DNA from: a virus
Lineage: Duplodnaviria; Heunggongvirae; Uroviricota; Caudoviricetes
Direction: 5' to 3' (one strand)
DNA: 11,553 bases
Virus record (IMG/VR): IMGVR_UViG_2675903654_000008
Span: 1-11,553 of that record
Below are positions 1-6,841 of this stretch, one piece after another; position 1 is the stretch's first letter, and each line of letters begins with the position of its first letter. Both the position numbers and the translations under genes were made by a program. Under the pieces are notes generated by a model. The model was not told the origin of the DNA. It did not search any database and was given only the letters and a program-made list of their open reading frames with translations.

Positions 1-109
1 TACTCCTCCGGCAGAAGCAGAAAAAGCTTATTATGCTTCCATCGGAAAAGATGATCTGGCAGCCTGAGTTCACAGATAAAACACTCTCCAGGAAACCCGG
101 GGCGGTTCA
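1..109 (+). mobile_element. IS3-family insertion sequence, right (3') end, IS629/IS1203-like; window starts inside the element
   Basis: Terminus ...GGAAACCCGGGGCGGTTCA ends at 109. Bases 2-67 encode an in-frame transposase OrfB C-terminus (TPPAEAEKAYYASIGKDDLAA, stop at 65-67). The reverse complement of 1-109 recurs at 11430-11538 with one mismatch. Matches my recollection of the IS629 3' end. Confidence 0.85.
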
Positions 110-161
110 ATCGGGTTGAAAGGGCGAACCGATGCCGCCCTGCAATAGCGAACTGTTGCAT
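110..161 (-). pseudogene. 5' fragment of a leftward gene (17 codons, MQQFAIAGRHRFALSTR) truncated by the IS end; N-terminus weakly cIII-like
   Basis: ATG at 161-159 (minus) preceded by SD AAGGAGC. The frame runs straight into the IS terminus at 109. Lambda CIII begins MQYAIAG, and the position (distal pL operon) fits. Confidence 0.35.
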
Positions 162-344
162 AGGATGCTCCTTCTGTTTGATTGCATAACGAAAACGCCT
201 CGAGTGAAGCGTTATTGGTATGCATATAAAAAGGCCCTCACACTGGAGGGCAAAGAAGATTTCCAATAATCAGAACAAGTCGGCTCCTGTTTAGTTACGA
301 GCGACATTGCTCACATAGCAGACTCGCAAATCTGATATAGGCGC

Positions 345-506
345 TTATTCGCATCGCATGACAACATCAAATTTTTCGAGATTACTTTGCCGCAACAATC
401 CCTCTTCTACGCGGTCAGCTTTTCTATAATTATCAAATTCGAAATGTTTAATTACTTCTTTCGTTTCTCGCTCTATAACTTCAACGATGTATTTCTTATT
501 CATCAT
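345..506 (-). CDS. hypothetical small protein (53 aa, MMNKKYIVEVIERETKEV...)
   Basis: ORF below the track size cutoff. Its ATG overlaps the stop of the upstream 96-aa ORF (ATGATGA arrangement), suggesting translational coupling. Confidence 0.35.
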   Translation of the reverse strand: MMNKKYIVEVIERETKEVIKHFEFDNYRKADRVEEGLLRQSNLEKFDVVMRCE

Positions 507-793
507 TCTTCCCCAAGAGCTTTGCTGATTGCTGACTGTGCTTTCGATACTTCATCAGGATAATGGTCATTCCAGTTTTGCTTGTATGCCTTGTTTAGCA
601 TCGCTTGCAGGGCATTTAAAAGGTCAGGTGCTGCCGCTATTAGATTGGCATCTTCAATGCATTGAACTTCCTCACAGATTGCAATATACGAACGCCAGCC
701 TGCGCCATTTTCAAGTGAGTCTGCCTGGATGATTTTAATCTCATCGCCATCCATCATTATTTCCCACTTACCTTCGGTACCTTTAAATTCCAT
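503..793 (-). CDS. hypothetical early-left phage protein (96 aa); AAAPDLLNAL segment reminiscent of Ead/Ea22-like phage proteins
   Basis: Track ORF, same orientation as the pL operon. The family resemblance is from memory only. Confidence 0.55.
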   Translation of the reverse strand: MEFKGTEGKWEIMMDGDEIKIIQADSLENGAGWRSYIAICEEVQCIEDANLIAAAPDLLNALQAMLNKAYKQNWNDHYPDEVSKAQSAISKALGEE

Positions 794-845
794 GTTAGCC
801 TCTGTTGTTTATGCCAAAAATAAAGGCCGACTATGCGGCCTGAAA

Positions 846-1295
846 TTACTTAACCAATGATGCTGCATATTCGATAAGGTAAAGTTTTGGGGCCAGCCAA
901 ATTTTTAACCAAGTCATATTGGTTACTACACCAATAATAAAAATCCCCCACAGAGTCAAAACTCCAACCAATGGCATGATAAGAAGGTTAATATCTCCTT
1001 TGCTATCCCAAACCATTGTCGGCCTGTATTTGGGATTTCCCCTCTCCCATGAGTATCCTTCATCACCGATTTTACCTGTCTCAACTCTTTGGCACTGCTT
1101 CTTCATAAACCAGAAAACCAGTGGGATTGTTAGAATGGCTATTAATGTTTTAATCAGACTGTCAACCATATTCCATAGCAGCAACTGATGAACAACATCA
1201 GGAATCTGTGCCTGGCTAAATGAAACAGCCGCGTCTATTCCATTACTGGCTTTTTGCAGTAGTTCTACGAGAATCTTGTTTGCTTGTTCTTCCAT
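846..1295 (-). CDS. hypothetical small membrane protein (149 aa, two hydrophobic helices)
   Basis: Track ORF. SD AAGGTG upstream of the ATG at 1295. Hydrophobic stretches LIKTLIAILTIPLVFWF and LLIMPLVGVLTLWGIFIIGVV. Confidence 0.6.
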   Translation of the reverse strand: MEEQANKILVELLQKASNGIDAAVSFSQAQIPDVVHQLLLWNMVDSLIKTLIAILTIPLVFWFMKKQCQRVETGKIGDEGYSWERGNPKYRPTMVWDSKGDINLLIMPLVGVLTLWGIFIIGVVTNMTWLKIWLAPKLYLIEYAASLVK

Positions 1296-1438
1296 ATATC
1301 ACCTTAAATAGTGGATTGCGGTAGTAAAGATTGTGCCTGTCTTTTAACCACATCAGGCTCGGTGGTTCTCGTGTACCCCTACAGCGAGAAATCGGATAAA
1401 CTCTATTCACCCCTACAGAGAGCAAAAGAGAAACGCCG

Positions 1439-2020
1439 ATGAACAACTCATGGTGGCAGGAACTAATGCATTTTTTCCTGCAAGGAATGACACTTAAACA
1501 GTTGATTCATATGCTAATCATCCTGATCATATTGATTATTGTTATGCCGGTAAGCGTAAAAGAATGGATAAACCTGCATAATCCAGAAATCCTTCCTCAT
1601 TATTGGATGTATTACATCCTGTTGTTCTGCGTTAGCTATGTGCTTAACGGTGTTGTTAATTCCGCTTATCACGCTGTGACTGAAAGAATTGAGGTATCCG
1701 CTGCTCAGAAGCGCAAATCTAAAGAAGAAAAATATGTGCAAGATTTGTTTGATTCGTTAACTCTTGGAGAAAGAGCGTATTTGGCATTCGCTGTAGCCGC
1801 GAATAACCAGCTAAAGACAGAAAAGGGAAGCCATGAAGCAATCTCATTGCTCGAAAAAGGGCTTCTTATTCGGATACCTTCTGCTACTGGATATCCTGAA
1901 ATCGACCGTTTTGTTATCCCTGAACGCTATAGAAATGAGTGCTACATTAGGTTTGCTGGGAAGAAAGACAGCCTTATGGATGAACTTATCGCTCAGGATA
2001 AGCATGGCAAAAACAAGTAA
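1439..2020 (+). CDS. sieB: superinfection exclusion protein B-like (SieB-like) membrane protein
   Basis: 193-aa ORF with an N-terminal transmembrane segment (LIHMLIILIILIIVMPV) and a second hydrophobic helix. Sits next to the N gene on the opposite strand, as sieB does in lambda/P22-type phages. Family assignment from memory. Confidence 0.55.
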   Translation: MNNSWWQELMHFFLQGMTLKQLIHMLIILIILIIVMPVSVKEWINLHNPEILPHYWMYYILLFCVSYVLNGVVNSAYHAVTERIEVSAAQKRKSKEEKYVQDLFDSLTLGERAYLAFAVAANNQLKTEKGSHEAISLLEKGLLIRIPSATGYPEIDRFVIPERYRNECYIRFAGKKDSLMDELIAQDKHGKNK

Positions 2021-2036
2021 TTAGCAAATGAATTTA

Positions 2037-2309
2037 TCATCTCGCCGTCAGTTGTTTTGATTTCCGGTAGCCTGCCGAGTAAATGGCTACGTTTGGCAGG
2101 CAAATACTTCCACTGCATTCTTCTGCCTTCTTGCAGCGAAGGCTTCCGAGTGATGCTGCTTTATCTGCTCTGACGCAACCAGAGAGCTTTAGCGCAATTT
2201 TTCGCGCCAGTCGCTGCTCTTGCATTGCCTGTTCACGTTGAGCCTGTCTGCGTGCTCTGCGGCGATTTCTGGCGTTATCGTCAGCCAGATATGTAATGAC
2301 TACTGTCAT
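2037..2309 (-). CDS. N: N-like transcription antitermination protein with an arginine-rich motif
   Basis: 90-aa ORF, first gene downstream of pL/nutL. Arginine-rich N-terminus (NARNRRRARRQAQREQA). SD GGAGGT before the ATG at 2309. Confidence 0.7.
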   Translation of the reverse strand: MTVVITYLADDNARNRRRARRQAQREQAMQEQRLARKIALKLSGCVRADKAASLGSLRCKKAEECSGSICLPNVAIYSAGYRKSKQLTAR

Positions 2310-2416
2310 GTTGACCTCCGATGATTGACTTTGGCGGTGACGCGCCGGGTGCTTATCTTCCGGTTGCCGTCGTGCAGCTGCACTTCACGTCACCCCAAAG
2401 CCAACTACTCTTTGGT

Positions 2417-2457
2417 TCCCGCATTTCGGCGGGACAATCCCATCAATGTTAAAGAGC
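2417..2457 (-). promoter_or_regulatory. nutL: boxA-like GCTCTTTAA plus boxB hairpin UCCCGC-CGAAAU-GCGGGA
   Basis: On the minus strand, boxA (2457-2449) is followed by a boxB stem-loop (2434-2417), between pL and N. The boxB sequence is identical to the one at nutR. Confidence 0.65.
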
Positions 2458-2503
2458 CTGCCAAGCTGTTCCGTTTGGCTACCAGCGTCCTGCTGATGGC
2501 TTA

Positions 2504-2584
2504 AATTTAAGATCTCTTTAATTAATGGTCAAGAGTATTTTTGAAGAAAACTTAAATTTTCTTTCGTAACTTAAGTTTAGCTTT
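2504..2584 (-). promoter_or_regulatory. pL promoter candidate with OL operators
   Basis: Minus-strand -35 TTGACC (2532-2527) and -10 TAAATT (2509-2504), 17-bp spacer. Overlapping TTAAG...CTTTAA-type operator-like sequences (e.g. ATTTAAGATCTCTTTAAT at 2505-2522). Confidence 0.45.
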
Positions 2585-2600
2585 GATTTTTAAAGGAAAT

Positions 2601-2622
2601 AAAAAAAGGGGCGAATGCCCCC
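2601..2622 (-). terminator. intrinsic terminator immediately downstream of the repressor gene
   Basis: Minus strand reads TAA-GGGGGCATTCGCCCC-TTTTTTT: a GC stem followed by a T-run directly after the cI stop. Confidence 0.6.
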
Positions 2623-3273
2623 TTATGGAAGGTTTGCTAGTTTTGCATCGACAACTACGCCGATGATTTTGCAGTTTCCGTTGATCTCGATCATCGGATA
2701 TTGTGGGTTAAGTGGTTTTAGAAACTTCCTGCCTGCATCAATAACTAACTTCTTGAAAGTTGCCTCGTTTTCTCCTTCGAGCTTTGCAACTACAAGTTTC
2801 CCGTTACGCGGCTCTACTTCAGGATCGACGAGTATTATCATTCCTTCAGGGATACTGAGACCGGCTGGAGCCGTCATTGAGTCTCCCTTCACGTCCAACC
2901 AAAACGAATCTTCTGAACAGTCTACGGTTGTATCGTACCAGTTATCTATTGCACGCTTATGATATGGTTCTACAGCTTCCATCCAGCATCCTGCGCTCAC
3001 CCAGCTAATCAGAGGGAATGACCCTCTTGGATCATGCCTACTGTGATAGGCAATGTTTGAAAGACTTTCCTCTCCTTTCATCAGATAGTCAGGGGAACAC
3101 TTCAACGCATTAGCCAGGGCGAGAAGATTCTCTCCATTTGGCTCTGTCTCAGAGCGTTCCCACTGAGATATGGCAACATTAGACACGCCGACCATCTTTC
3201 CAAGTGCGGCCTGCCTGATCTTGAGTTCTTTTCTCCGAGCGCGAATGCGCTCTCCCATCAATTGAGTTTTCAT
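2623..3273 (-). CDS. cI: cI/c2-type prophage repressor (N-terminal HTH, C-terminal LexA-like S24 autopeptidase); closely P22 c2-like
   Basis: 216 aa. HTH segment QAALGKMVGVSNVAISQWE. C-terminal GDSM serine and FKKL lysine motifs. C-terminal half similar to lambda CI and the whole protein to P22 C2 as I recall them. Confidence 0.9.
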   Translation of the reverse strand: MKTQLMGERIRARRKELKIRQAALGKMVGVSNVAISQWERSETEPNGENLLALANALKCSPDYLMKGEESLSNIAYHSRHDPRGSFPLISWVSAGCWMEAVEPYHKRAIDNWYDTTVDCSEDSFWLDVKGDSMTAPAGLSIPEGMIILVDPEVEPRNGKLVVAKLEGENEATFKKLVIDAGRKFLKPLNPQYPMIEINGNCKIIGVVVDAKLANLP

Positions 3274-3339
3274 AGTTAAGACATCTTAAATAAACTTGAC
3301 TTAAGATTCCTTTAGTGGATAATTTAAGTGTTCTTTAAT
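3274..3339. promoter_or_regulatory. OR operator cluster (three 18-bp sites) with pR
   Basis: AGTTAAGACATCTTAAAT (3274-3291), ACTTAAGATTCCTTTAGT (3299-3316), ATTTAAGTGTTCTTTAAT (3322-3339) fit the P22-type A.TTAAG....CTT.A.T pattern. pR -35 TTGACT (3296-3301) and -10 GATAAT (3318-3323). Confidence 0.7.
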
Positions 3340-3353
3340 TTCGGGGCGAGTCT

Positions 3354-3539
3354 ATGTACAAGAAAGATGTTATCGACCACTTCGGAACCCAGCGTGCTGT
3401 AGCTAAAGCGTTAGGCATTAGCGACGCAGCAGTCTCTCAGTGGAAGGAAGTCATCCCAGAGAAAGACGCCTATCGACTGGAAGTCGTTACAGCTGGCGCC
3501 CTGAAGTATCAAGAAAGCGCTTACCGCAAAGCGGCATAA
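3354..3539 (+). CDS. cro: Cro repressor (P22-type)
   Basis: 61-aa ORF divergent from cI across the operator region. HTH QRAVAKALGISDAAVSQW. Confidence 0.85.
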   Translation: MYKKDVIDHFGTQRAVAKALGISDAAVSQWKEVIPEKDAYRLEVVTAGALKYQESAYRKAA

Positions 3540-3545
3540 GCAAAT

Positions 3546-3590
3546 TGCTCTTTAACAGTCATGGTCCTCATTCCCGCCGAAATGCGGGAA
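3546..3590 (+). promoter_or_regulatory. nutR: boxA TGCTCTTTAA plus boxB hairpin UUCCCGC-CGAAAU-GCGGGAA
   Basis: boxA at 3546-3555, 15-nt spacer, boxB at 3571-3590, just downstream of the cro stop. Confidence 0.7.
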
Positions 3591-3596
3591 TACAAC

Positions 3597-3630
3597 GCGC
3601 ATAAGTTGATGCGCATAACTTCTTATTTGT
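3597..3630 (+). terminator. candidate tR1 region (GCGCAT-loop-ATGCGC hairpin followed by T-rich tract)
   Basis: Inverted repeat 3597-3602 / 3609-3614 between nutR and cII. Lambda tR1 is Rho-dependent, so the hairpin alone is weak evidence. Confidence 0.3.
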
Positions 3631-3647
3631 TAAGGAAATACTTACAT

Positions 3648-3941
3648 ATGGTTCGTGCAAACAAACGCAACGAGGCTCTAAGAATCGAGAGTGCGTTGCT
3701 TAACAAAATCGCAATGCTTGGAACTGAGAAGACAGCGGAAGCTGTGGGAGTTGATAAGTCGCAGATCAGCAGGTGGAAGAGGGACTGGATTCCAAAGTTC
3801 TCAATGCTGCTTGCTGTTCTTGAATGGGGCGTCGTTGACGACGACATGGCTCGATTGGCACGACAAGTTGCTTCGATTCTCACCAATAAAAAACGCCCGG
3901 CGGCAACCGAGCGTTCTGAACAAATCCAGATGGAATTCTGA
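3648..3941 (+). CDS. cII: CII transcriptional activator
   Basis: Translation from the ATG at 3648 (MVRANKRNEALRIESALLNKIAMLGTEKTAEAVGVDKSQISRWKRDW...EQIQMEF, 97 aa) is near-identical to lambda CII as I recall it. The track's upstream start at 3561 would read through nutR. Confidence 0.9.
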   Translation: MVRANKRNEALRIESALLNKIAMLGTEKTAEAVGVDKSQISRWKRDWIPKFSMLLAVLEWGVVDDDMARLARQVASILTNKKRPAATERSEQIQMEF

Positions 3942-3962
3942 GGGAATTACTGGATCAATCCA
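3886..3962 (-). ncRNA. oop: oop antisense RNA candidate, overlapping the 3' end of cII
   Basis: The cII/O junction closely matches lambda. On the minus strand there is a GC-rich hairpin then a T-run (complement of AATAAAAAACGCCCGGCGGC at 3886-3905). Ends are approximate, inferred by analogy to lambda. Confidence 0.45.
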
Positions 3963-3973
3963 CAGGAGTCATT

Positions 3974-4912
3974 ATGACAAATACAGCAAAAATACTCAAC
4001 TTCGGCAGAGGTAACTTTGCCGAACAGGAGCGTAATGTGGCAGATCTCGATGATGGTTACGCCAGACTATCAAATATGCTGATTGAGGCTTATTCAGGCG
4101 CAGATCTGACCAAGCGACAGTTTAAAGTGCTGCTTGCCATTCTGCGTAAAACCTATGGGTGGAATAAACCAATGGACAGAATCACCGATTCTCAACTTAG
4201 CGAGATTACAAAGTTACCTGTCAAACGGTGCAATGAAGCCAAGTTAGAACTCGTCAGAATGAATATTATCAAGCAGCAAGGCGGCATGTTTGGACCAAAT
4301 AAAAACATCCCAGAATGGTGCATCCCTCAAAACGAGGGAGGTTCCCCTAAAATGAGGGACATCCCTCAAAACGAGGGAAAATCCCCTAAAACGAGGGATA
4401 AAACATCCCTCAAATTAGGGGATTGCTATCCCTCAAAACAGGGGGACACAAAAGACACTATTACAAAAGAAAAAAGAAAAGATTATTCGTCAGAGAATTC
4501 TGGCGAATCCTCTGACCAGCCAGAAAACGATCTTTCTGTGGTTAAACCGGATGCTGCAATTCAGAGCGGCAGCAAGTGGGGAACAGCAGAAGACCTGACC
4601 GCCGCAGAGTGGATGTTTGACATGGTGAAGACCATCGCACCATCAGCCAGAAAACCGAATTTTGCAGGGTGGGCTAACGATATCCGCCTGATGCGTGAAC
4701 GTGACGGACGTAACCACCGCGACATGTGCGTGCTGTTCCGCTGGGCATGCCAGGACAACTTCTGGTCCGGTAACGTGCTAAGTCCGGCCAAACTCCGCGA
4801 CAAGTGGGCCCAACTCGAAATCAACCGTAACAAGCAACAGGCTGGCGTGACAGCTGGAAAACCAAAACTCGACCTGACAAACACTGACTGGATTTACGGG
4901 GTGGATTTATGA
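3974..4912 (+). CDS. O: replication initiator protein O (lambda-type)
   Basis: 312-aa ORF. N-terminus MTNTAKILNFGRGNFAEQERNVADLDDGYARLSNML matches lambda O. Contains the origin iterons in its linker region. Confidence 0.9.
   Translation: MTNTAKILNFGRGNFAEQERNVADLDDGYARLSNMLIEAYSGADLTKRQFKVLLAILRKTYGWNKPMDRITDSQLSEITKLPVKRCNEAKLELVRMNIIKQQGGMFGPNKNIPEWCIPQNEGGSPKMRDIPQNEGKSPKTRDKTSLKLGDCYPSKQGDTKDTITKEKRKDYSSENSGESSDQPENDLSVVKPDAAIQSGSKWGTAEDLTAAEWMFDMVKTIAPSARKPNFAGWANDIRLMRERDGRNHRDMCVLFRWACQDNFWSGNVLSPAKLRDKWAQLEINRNKQQAGVTAGKPKLDLTNTDWIYGVDL
4322..4446 (+). repeat. ori iterons: six ~18-bp O-binding repeats, followed by an AT-rich unwinding region (~4447-4490)
   Basis: ATCCCTCAAAACGAGGGA (4322-4339), TTCCCCTAAAATGAGGGA (4342-4359), ATCCCTCAAAACGAGGGA (4361-4378), ATCCCCTAAAACGAGGGA (4381-4398), ATCCCTCAAATTAGGGGA (4405-4422), ATCCCTCAAAACAGGGGGA (4428-4446). 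Confidence 0.85.
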
Positions 4913-5610
4913 AAAACATCGCCGCACAGATGGTTAACTTTGACCGTGAGCAGATGCGTCGGATCGCCAACAACATGCCGGAACAGTACGACGAAAAGCC
5001 GCAGGTACAACAGGTAGCGCAGATCATCAACGGTGTGTTCAGCCAGTTACTGGCAACTTTCCCGGCGAGTCTGGCTAACCGGGACCAGAACGAACTGAAT
5101 GAAATCCGCCGCCAGTGGGTTCTGGCTTTCCGGGAAAACGGGATCACCTCGATGGAACAGGTTAACGCAGGAATGCGCGTAGCCCGTCGGCAGAATCGAC
5201 CATTTCTTCCATCACCCGGGCAGTTTGTTGCATGGTGCCGGGAAGAAGCATCCGTTATCGCCGGACTGCCAAACGTCAGCGAGCTGGTTGATATGGTTTA
5301 CGAGTATTGCCGGAAGCGTGGCCTGTATCCGGATGCAGAGTCTTATCCGTGGAAATCAAACGCGCACTACTGGCTGGTTACCAACCTGTACCAGAACATG
5401 CGGGCCAATGCGCTGACTGACGCGGAATTACGGCGCAAGGCTGCCGATGAACTGACCTGTATGACAGCACGAATTAACCGTGGTGAGACGATACCTGAAC
5501 CAGTAAAACAACTTCCTGTCATGGGCGGCAGACCTCTAAATCGAGCACAGGCTCTGGCGAAGATCGCAGAAATTAAAGCTAAGTTCGGACTGAAAGGAGC
5601 AAGTGTATGA
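4909..5610 (+). CDS. P: replication protein P (DnaB helicase loader), lambda-type
   Basis: 233-aa ORF overlapping the O stop. Sequence matches lambda P as I recall it. Confidence 0.9.
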   Translation: MKNIAAQMVNFDREQMRRIANNMPEQYDEKPQVQQVAQIINGVFSQLLATFPASLANRDQNELNEIRRQWVLAFRENGITSMEQVNAGMRVARRQNRPFLPSPGQFVAWCREEASVIAGLPNVSELVDMVYEYCRKRGLYPDAESYPWKSNAHYWLVTNLYQNMRANALTDAELRRKAADELTCMTARINRGETIPEPVKQLPVMGGRPLNRAQALAKIAEIKAKFGLKGASV

Positions 5611-5897
5611 CGGGCAAAGAGGCAATTATTCATTACCTCGGGACGCATAAGAACTTCTGTGCACAGGACGTTTCCGCGGTAACAGGCGCAACCGTAACCA
5701 GCATAAATCAGGCTGCGGCTAAAATGGCGCGGGCAGGAATCCTGGTCATTGATGGTAAGGTCTGGCGAACGGTGTATTACCGGTTTGCTACCAGGGAAGA
5801 ACGGGAAGGAAAGGTGAGCACGAACCTGATTTTTAAGGAGTGTCGCCAGAGTGTAGCGATGAAACGGGTATTGGCGGTATATGGAGTTAAAAGATGA
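5607..5897 (+). CDS. ren: Ren protein
   Basis: 96-aa ORF overlapping the P stop (ATGA), lambda ren-like sequence and position. Confidence 0.85.
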   Translation: MTGKEAIIHYLGTHKNFCAQDVSAVTGATVTSINQAAAKMARAGILVIDGKVWRTVYYRFATREEREGKVSTNLIFKECRQSVAMKRVLAVYGVKR

Positions 5898-5922
5898 CCA
5901 TCTACATCACTGAGCTAATAAC

Positions 5923-5954
5923 AGGCCTGCTGGTAATCGCAGGCCTTTTTATTT
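5923..5954 (+). terminator. tR2-like intrinsic terminator
   Basis: AGGCCTGC-TGGTAATC-GCAGGCCT stem-loop followed by TTTTTATTT, right after ren; same context as lambda tR2. Confidence 0.7.
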
Positions 5955-5967
5955 GGGGGAGAGGGAA

Positions 5968-6246
5968 GTGAACGATAGCTACCGACAGTTTGAAAACTGG
6001 TGGTCAAAAGACAAAAGCCAGTTCACGGGAGACGATGAATTAAAAGAGTTTGCCTGGGTGATATGGCAGGCATCGCGCTCTGCTATTGAACTGGATATCG
6101 ACTGGCCCGAATCGAATGACGACCTTTGGAAAGATGGTGAAGAAGGTGCTTATGCGATGGGTTATGAGGATGGGCGTGACAAAACGGTAATTGCAGTAAT
6201 GAAAGCCATCAGGGCCGCAGGAATCAAAGAAAAGAATTTCGATTAA
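5968..6246 (+). CDS. hypothetical nin-region protein (92 aa from GTG 5968; 97 aa if TTG 5953 is used)
   Basis: Track ORF. SD GGAGAGGGAA immediately upstream of the GTG. Acidic, Trp-rich protein with no family I can recognise. Confidence 0.55.
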   Translation: MNDSYRQFENWWSKDKSQFTGDDELKEFAWVIWQASRSAIELDIDWPESNDDLWKDGEEGAYAMGYEDGRDKTVIAVMKAIRAAGIKEKNFD

Positions 6247-6378
6247 GCAAATATCACTTCAATAAATCGCTTTTAAGGCATCACAATCGCTCTGTGGTGA
6301 GGTAAGCACGTGCAAGGCATGCCGATAAGCAGCGAGAATGAAAAATGCGTCAGAATGCGTTTGAGGAGGTTTTAAGAA

Positions 6379-6594
6379 ATGAGTACGATAGCTGAGCTTG
6401 TCAGGGCTAATTTTCGTGAAGAGTTGGTGCGTTGGTATCGGTATCGTTCATCGTCCAGTTTGCCGCTTGATGAGTTGTATGAGCATTCACCTGCCGCACG
6501 ACGCTATCCGCGTGACCGTGTTCTTCGACGGTTGTTCAAACTCAACAATGAGTTTCAGCGCAACAGAATTATCCGGAGTCTGGATTTTAAGTGA
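6379..6594 (+). CDS. hypothetical protein (71 aa, basic, Arg-rich)
   Basis: Track ORF with a strong SD (GAGGAGG) 8 nt upstream of the ATG. Confidence 0.5.
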   Translation: MSTIAELVRANFREELVRWYRYRSSSSLPLDELYEHSPAARRYPRDRVLRRLFKLNNEFQRNRIIRSLDFK

Positions 6595-6604
6595 AGGAGT
6601 GAGC

Positions 6605-6841
6605 ATGAGCGACCTATCATTAACCCAGCCAAAGCTAAAAGAATGTCCGTTTTGCGGCGGTAATGCTCGTCTGTGGGTTGAGGCCGGAATAAATATTGAT
6701 GTGTGGGGCTATGCAGAATGTGACCTCTGTGAAGCCAGGGGGGCATGGGCACCATCAGTTGCTGCGGCGGCTGAAAAATGGAACCGGAGAGCAGGAGATG
6801 AAGCAAACCTTTCTGCTTCGCAACGAAGCAATCAGAAATAA
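6605..6841 (+). CDS. Lar-family restriction-alleviation-like small zinc-binding protein
   Basis: Internal ATG at 6605 with SD AGGAGTG. Product MSDLSLTQPKLKECPFCGG...ECDLCEARGAWAPSVAAAAEKWNRR has the CPFCG / CxxC / (A/K)WNRR pattern I associate with Lar-like proteins. The 3' end overlaps the ninB start. Confidence 0.55.
   Translation: MSDLSLTQPKLKECPFCGGNARLWVEAGINIDVWGYAECDLCEARGAWAPSVAAAAEKWNRRAGDEANLSASQRSNQK

Follow-up and report, generated by a model that had tools for sequence, protein, structure and literature searches.

The IMG/VR virus record IMGVR_UViG_2675903654_000008 contains, at its positions 1 to 11,553, the early region of a lambdoid Escherichia coli prophage. This whole stretch of 11,553 nucleotides is referred to here as the window, and the system under study is the N antiterminator with its two nut sites, which flank the immunity genes at 2037-3941. 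Together with the cII, O, P, and ren genes, this segment is very probably the early regulatory centre of the prophage, built from four known modules and working through an N mechanism like those of lambda, P22, and phage 21. A BLAST comparison with reference phages gave the following module map.

2041-2504: module a, N, the pL leader, and nutL; HK620-type
2505-3546: module b, OL-cI-OR-cro; imm21/P22-type
3547-3650: module c, nutR up to the cII start; HK620-identical
3631-5969: module d, cII-O-P-ren; lambda-type

The boundaries of these modules were sharp. Positions 2041-2504 were 98.7% identical to coliphage HK620, with the likeness ending one base short of the first left operator (OL1), and positions 3547-3650, which comprise boxA and boxB of nutR (boxA-R and boxB-R) and the sequence up to the cII start, were 100% identical to HK620. 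The operators, repressor, cro, and boxA-R showed 83-84% DNA identity to phage 21 and to P22, in alignments that began at ~2118, 2441, or 2505 and ended at 3559-3560, immediately past boxA-R. Similarity to lambda (94.7% DNA identity) extended from 3631 to 5969, from the cII ribosome-binding site through ren. A preliminary description of this DNA, made from the sequence alone, had proposed a mosaic region with a junction between cro/boxA-R and the cII start and nearly lambda sequence from the cII ribosome-binding region onward. Both proposals agree with the positions at which the phage 21/P22 likeness stops and the lambda match begins, and N, the boxB pair, the operators, the repressor, Cro, and the terminator were all located where that description had placed them.

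The N gene and the elements of the two nut sites are listed below.

2037-2309, minus strand: N antiterminator gene, 90 amino acids (open reading frame, Pfam, and alignment)
2447-2458, minus strand: boxA of nutL (GGCTCTTTAACA), conserved in phage 21, P22, HK620, and JEP4
2416-2434, minus strand: boxB of nutL, stem UCCCGC/GCGGGA and loop CGAAAU (exact 19-mer and predicted fold; inside the nutL annotated in HK620)
3547-3558, plus strand: boxA of nutR (TGCTCTTTAACA), located by alignment
3570-3591, plus strand: boxB of nutR, 8-bp stem AUUCCCGC/GCGGGAAU and loop CGAAAU (predicted fold; inside the nutR annotated in HK620)

The N protein matched the Pfam family N_peptide (PF25694, E=1e-15) and PHROG 271, 'anti-termination protein N-like' (E=5e-34), and its residues 12-28 form an arginine-rich motif (ARM), NARNRRRARRQAQREQA. 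With its start at 2309, N opens the leftward early operon, 3' of a pL-like promoter and of nutL. The sequence hallmarks of a lambdoid N/nut system were found: an N-family protein with an ARM, encoded by the first pL gene as in lambda, and, again as in lambda, boxA-boxB sites in the transcripts from pL and pR alike. A search of PDB sequences with N returned no relative, only weak, non-significant matches to a coiled region of RNF168, and an Rfam scan of the whole window returned no nut or oop family, only two sub-threshold chance matches. Identity with the N of H-19B was ruled out, as that protein has 127 amino acids and the ARM RSRRRER (PMC3526286).

The earlier proposal of one and the same boxB hairpin at nutL and nutR was borne out. 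The 19-mer TCCCGCCGAAATGCGGGAA occurred exactly twice in the window, at 2416-2434 on the minus strand and at 3572-3590 on the plus strand, that is, once in each early transcript, and the chance expectation for such a repeat was none (200 shuffles). Each boxB lies 12 nt 3' of a boxA (GCTCTTTAACA) in the pL or pR leader, and a fold check of both sites predicted hairpins with a stem of 6-8 bp and the loop CGAAAU. Short, G+C-rich hairpins with unremarkable folding z-scores could in principle be terminators or chance palindromes instead of boxB elements, but this seems extremely improbable: neither hairpin is followed by a T-run, a terminator scan skipped both, the exact 19-mer is not expected twice by chance, and both copies stand 12 nt past the boxA consensus in the two early leaders. 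Moreover, when the nutL and nutR sequences of the window, phage 21, and P22 were aligned, their flanks were conserved and the boxB elements replaced one another column for column. The boxB elements compared were as follows.

Window: UCCCGC-CGAAAU-GCGGGA
Phage 21 nutL: CUCAAC-CUAACC-GUUGAG
Phage 21 nutR: stem UCACCU/GGGUGA, loop CUAACC
P22 nutL: GCGCU-GACAA-AGCGC

That the ARM and boxB of the window match neither the lambda nor the P22 pair, as had been noted before, held true: the ARM is a different one, and the boxB loop is the hexaloop CGAAAU in contrast to the pentaloops of those phages. Lambda N was 27% identical to the window N, and lambda boxB has a GAAAA/GAAGA pentaloop. P22 gp24 was 43% identical overall, with an ARM (GNAKTRRHERRRKLAIER) unlike that of the window and a boxB with a 5-bp stem and the pentaloop GACAA. 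The pair was also unlike that of phage 21, whose ARM (GTAKSRYKARRAELIAERR), boxB loop (CUAACC), boxB stems, and N C-terminus all differ from those of the window; over the ARM part, only 7 of 34 N-terminal positions were common to the two N proteins. In contrast, the ARM and the boxB of both nut sites were as in HK620. The two N proteins were identical at 88 of 90 residues (97.8%), including all of residues 1-55, and the HK620 record (GenBank AF335538) has N, a putative nutL, and a putative nutR annotated on the same sequences as in the window, with boxA-spacer-boxB strings that are identical save for the first base of boxA-R. Judged from these sequences, the N/nut pair is the known HK620-type and not a new class; the distinct specificity proposed in the preliminary description therefore stands as a difference from lambda and P22, to which phage 21 can be added, but not as a new pair.

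The structure of the phage 21 complex offers a guide to how the CGAAAU loop may be built. In the phage 21 N-boxB complex (PDB 1NYB), the UAAC part of the CUAACC hexaloop folds in a GNRA-like way, with a non-canonical C-C pair at its flanks (PMC12550061). The window loop has the length and layout of the phage 21 loop, C[GAAA]U as compared with C[UAAC]C, and its GAAA is a true GNRA sequence between two pyrimidines. By analogy, the boxB of the window would have a phage 21-like architecture, in which a 6-nt loop forms a tetraloop and a flanking pyrimidine-pyrimidine pair, with another tetraloop and another stem read-out.

If the ARM and boxB form a matched pair, they should be inherited together, and this was the pattern observed. 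The HK620-type ARM went with the CGAAAU boxB in the window, HK620, JEP4, and CUS-3, and the phage 21-type ARM went with the CUAACC boxB in phage 21, VT1-Sakai, HK629, and mEp235; across eight named phages and the window, the ARM type predicted the boxB type without exception. We also compared 133 IMG/VR loci retrieved through two N types (the window N and a VT1-Sakai N query). The ARM was of the HK620 type in 80 loci and of the phage 21 type in 53, and no locus had a discordant boxB at its detectable nutL and nutR. In the 73 HK620-type loci with both nutL and nutR, the two sites had one and the same 16-nt boxB core, yet the interval between the two sites held four unrelated immunity classes (31 loci were imm21/P22-like and 42 were of three other kinds). 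HK620 itself has a 434/L-like repressor (cI) between the same nut sites, along with a lambda/HK97-like cro, a P22 c1-like cII, and HK022-like O and P, whereas the window has imm21/P22-type immunity and lambda-type cII-O-P-ren. Because nutR lies beyond the immunity cassette, it provides the stronger test of pairing, and a matched boxB pair around an exchanged immunity cassette is the pattern expected if N must fit both boxB elements while immunity is free to change. Comparison thus gives good support to a matched ARM-boxB pair whose specificity is distinct from those of lambda, P22, and phage 21. In one IMG/VR locus with an HK620-type N (L009), a G in the stem of the nutL boxB (~2626) is replaced by T (CCCTCC…GCGGG), and the 3 kb upstream contained no other HK620-type boxB; its nutL is perhaps weakened, or its nutR lies further off.

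Alignment of the window N with those of HK620, JEP4, CUS-3, phage 21, P22, and lambda indicated that the protein itself is a three-part mosaic, which the preliminary description had overlooked.

2211-2309, minus strand: N residues 1-33, HK620-type ARM
2118-2210, minus strand: N residues 34-64, identical to phage 21 N at 31 of 31 positions
2037-2117, minus strand: N residues 65-90 and the stop codon, resembling the C-terminus of P22 gp24

The 26 C-terminal residues of N occurred in two unrelated forms, a P22-like form ending in …SKQLTAR, as in the window, and a lambda/21-like form ending in …GSKPLI. The C-terminal form assorted independently of the ARM, and all four combinations were present in named phages.

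HK620-type ARM and P22-like C-terminus: window, HK620, JEP4
HK620-type ARM and lambda/21-like C-terminus: CUS-3
Phage 21-type ARM and P22-like C-terminus: VT1-Sakai, HK629
Phage 21-type ARM and lambda/21-like C-terminus: phage 21

The P22-like C-terminus was accompanied by a neighbouring sieB of the P22/VT1-Sakai type, and the window sieB was 97.9% identical to VT1-Sakai sieB at the amino acid level.

These comparisons bear on whether the pair could be a drifted phage 21-type pair, with an ARM that still recognises the phage 21-type boxB and has no separate specificity. Both kinds of hairpin have a 6-bp stem and a 6-nt loop with C1, A3, and A4 in common, and the window N agrees with phage 21 N throughout residues 34-64 and also in the ARR triplet at residues 19-21. 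However, the abrupt switch from 7 of 34 positions over the ARM to 31 of 31 positions thereafter argues for replacement of a module and not for drift, and no intermediate or mixed ARM/boxB was present in the 133 loci, although the immunity cassette had been exchanged at least four times. We consider drift from phage 21 improbable. A divergent N-terminal part of N as a sign of a new boxB specificity is a standard idea, applied for example to phage epsilon34 (PMC2629481).

Several points weigh against a matched and functional HK620-type pair. Its hairpins are small, and their folding energies were ordinary for their composition (z = -0.66 and -0.45), although elements of this size do not usually stand out in folding energy. 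With the same stem at nutL and nutR, the HK620-type class has no compensatory base changes to offer. A mere ~110 bp separates N from nutL, and linkage alone would prove little; the retention of nutR, for its part, could partly reflect recombination at conserved linkers such as boxA and not selection for matching. We found no binding or reporter test of the HK620-type pair in the searchable literature, to which the original HK620 paper does not belong, and the HK620 record labels its own nut sites as putative. Lastly, the present copy is bounded by insertion sequences (IS) and may sit in a defective prophage.

The last point concerns the window ends. Positions 1-109 and 11430-11538 form a 109-nt inverted repeat with 99% complementarity, and both ends matched the terminus of elements of the IS3-family IS1203/IS629 type, whose copies in E. 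coli number in the thousands. A related prophage (E. coli 2013C-4991) continues this segment leftward into ea10/cIII and rightward into ninG-Q, whereas the window is interrupted by the two inverted IS copies, near 134 in the early-left operon and near 11430 in ninG. These interruptions would fit an inactive relic of a defective prophage, whose features are inherited but no longer in use. We think this rather unlikely, as the open reading frames of N, cI, cro, cII, O, P, and ren are intact, the two nut sites, the six operators, and the two promoters are undamaged, and isolated plaque-forming phages whose genomes are annotated as complete (HK620, JEP4, mEp213, and CUS-3) have the same module with 98-100% identity.

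With the HK620-type ARM and boxB taken as a matched pair, it is possible, though we hold this only tentatively, that they are a fourth orthogonal N-peptide/RNA pair, with a GAAA tetraloop closed by a C-U mismatch and no cross-reaction with those of lambda, P22, or phage 21. Under such a reading, the C-GAAA-U loop may be a GNRA version of the C[UAAC]C loop of phage 21. An orthogonal pair would add an independent tag for peptide-RNA tethering and would be a natural test case of how arginine-rich helices read GNRA-like folds. Apart from orthogonality, the locus provides a clean comparative case in which the ARM and both boxB elements are inherited as a set while the immunity cassette and the C-terminal part of N swap freely, and it draws attention to a common, natural candidate for a peptide-RNA pair.

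The HK620-type N was widespread. Full-length N proteins with at least 93% identity to that of the window were also found in mEp213, HK630, HK140, JEP4, ECP1, and several Stx-converting phages, and the same ARM with another C-terminus was found in CUS-3, Gally, N7, IME10, and others. At least 80% of the region at 2037-3941 was present in 255 of 5426 complete E. coli genomes, and at least 564 IMG/VR stretches encode the window-type N. A viral contig (L006) was 100% identical to the window in every compared segment from sieB to O. Public records of HK620, JEP4, CUS-3, mEp213, and hundreds of E. coli prophages already include this sequence, its gene calls, and even its putative nut sites. Lambdoid phages are textbook examples of the exchange of N/nut, immunity, and replication cassettes as modules.

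Two E. coli P22-like podoviruses were close relatives over the N-to-cII segment. JEP4 (MT740315) was colinear with the window at 98.7% identity over 2041-3937, from N through cII, and CUS-3 (CP000711) was ~99% identical over 2118-3937. The preliminary description had set its novel specificity and mosaic junction against the prospect that the whole region aligns colinearly with one known phage, for example P22 with its gene 24 and nut sites. The sequence does align in this way, with JEP4 and with CUS-3, but the known phage is not P22 with its gene 24. After cII, JEP4 and CUS-3 differ from the window in having another O and a DnaB-type helicase and not the lambda O-P-ren genes, and CUS-3 N also differs in its lambda/21-type C-terminus. 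In the CUS-3 sequence (L001, 3207-3413), ~205 bp of extra DNA lie between the N start codon and nutL that are present neither in the window nor in JEP4, inside a feature recorded as 'bsq5; boundary sequence'.

The immunity cassette between the nut sites contained the following features.

2623-3273, minus strand: prophage repressor, 216 amino acids, HTH_3 and Peptidase_S24 domains (Pfam); imm21/P22 type
3354-3539, plus strand: cro, 61 amino acids, P22_Cro family (Pfam PF14549, E=9e-28)
2505-2522: left operator OL1, 18 bp (mapping of the phage 21 annotation and consensus scan, as for OL2 and OL3)
2540-2557: OL2, 18 bp
2569-2586: OL3, 18 bp
3274-3291: right operator OR3, 18 bp, identical to phage 21
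3299-3316: OR2, 18 bp, one base different from phage 21
3322-3339: OR1, 18 bp, identical to phage 21
2532-2504, minus strand: pL-like promoter (TTGACC, 17-nt spacer, TAAATT), overlapping OL1
3296-3323, plus strand: pR-like promoter, overlapping the right operators
2597-2624, minus strand: intrinsic terminator, hairpin at 2624-2605 (GGGGGCATTCGCCCC) followed by a T-run, beginning at the repressor stop codon

The repressor was 97% identical in amino acid sequence to those of phage 21, HK629, and mEp235 and 92% identical to P22 c2. Residues 17-53, where the helix-turn-helix is expected to lie, did not vary among the repressors of the window, P22, phage 21, HK629, and mEp235. Cro was 96.7% identical to phage 21 Cro and 95.1% identical to P22 Cro. 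The left operators differed from those of phage 21 by a small number of bases, and the pL transcription start of phage 21 mapped to window position 2497. As the DNA-binding domain of the repressor and the operators matched both phage 21 and P22, the cassette falls by sequence in the imm21/P22 group, and it is best termed imm21/P22-type, slightly nearer to phage 21. The P22-like character previously given to the repressor, Cro, and the 18-bp operators was therefore correct as to type but not as to the nearest relative of the repressor. An immunity region of P22 proper was rejected, because the phage 21 repressor was closer and the DNA was ~84% identical to both phages. The description of a repressor gene with its own terminator and no rexAB agreed with our findings: the hairpin and T-run stand at the stop codon, they correspond to a terminator annotated in phage 21, and no rex-like gene was found among the open reading frames of the window between cI and OL.

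Beyond the N/nut specificity, the window resembles phage 21 (OL657228) in gene order, operator layout, boxA sequences, the terminator after cI, and the sizes of the boxB stem and loop, but the phage 21 cII was only 42% identical to that of the window. The likeness to P22 comprises the repressor and Cro, 84% DNA identity over 2441-3560, the 26 C-terminal residues of N, and the adjacent sieB; in contrast, c2 of P22 is not followed by a T-run, and P22 differs from the window in c1 and in the replication genes. Lambda differs in having rexAB after cI and 17-bp operators.

The genes downstream of nutR were of the lambda type and were arranged as follows.

3648-3941, plus strand: cII, 97 amino acids (Pfam Phage_CII, E=2e-48)
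3890-3917, minus strand: oop-like terminator, opposite cII
3974-4912, plus strand: O
4909-5610, plus strand: P
5607-5897, plus strand: ren

Amino acid identities to lambda were 99.0% for cII, 98.3% for O, 97.4% for P, and 89.6% for ren, and O, P, and an iteron-bearing origin of replication (ori) identify the module as a lambda-type replication module. The ori within O (4323-4446) has six lambda-type iterons where lambda and phage 21 have four; duplication of the first two gives an O of 312 amino acids as compared with 299.

By analogy with lambda, P22, and phage 21, these parts would work together in the following way. In the prophage, the repressor bound to the six 18-bp operators would shut pL and pR, and its own mRNA would probably be made from a pRM-type promoter and stop at the terminator beside the stop codon, so that no rex-like genes would be co-transcribed. 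Upon induction, the repressor would be cleaved through its Peptidase_S24 domain, and pL would then produce N as its first product. The ARM of N is predicted to bind boxB in both nascent early RNAs, while the adjacent boxA would recruit NusB and NusE and N residues 34-90 may contact NusA and RNA polymerase. The polymerase modified in this way would pass the terminators tL and tR1 and continue into cII-O-P-ren and the nin region.

Outside the regulatory centre, the nin region contains an island of 33-35% G+C content (8000-10700) that is flanked by ninE and an HNH gene. An open reading frame at 8451-10223 on the minus strand encodes a protein of 590 amino acids that had no Pfam or PADLOC match and matched only PHROG 9230 (unknown function); it is annotated as 'hypothetical protein' in E. 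coli genomes. Inside the same island, a perfect tandem run of ~10 TATTTC hexamers at ~10540-10600, which could be prone to slippage, lies ~110 bp upstream of an open reading frame for an HNH_3/AP2-domain endonuclease (10711-11358). Between the IS end and sieB, three small leftward open reading frames (345-506, 503-793, and 846-1295, minus strand) matched only PHROGs of unknown function and had no Pfam domains, and the third is predicted to encode a hydrophobic protein.

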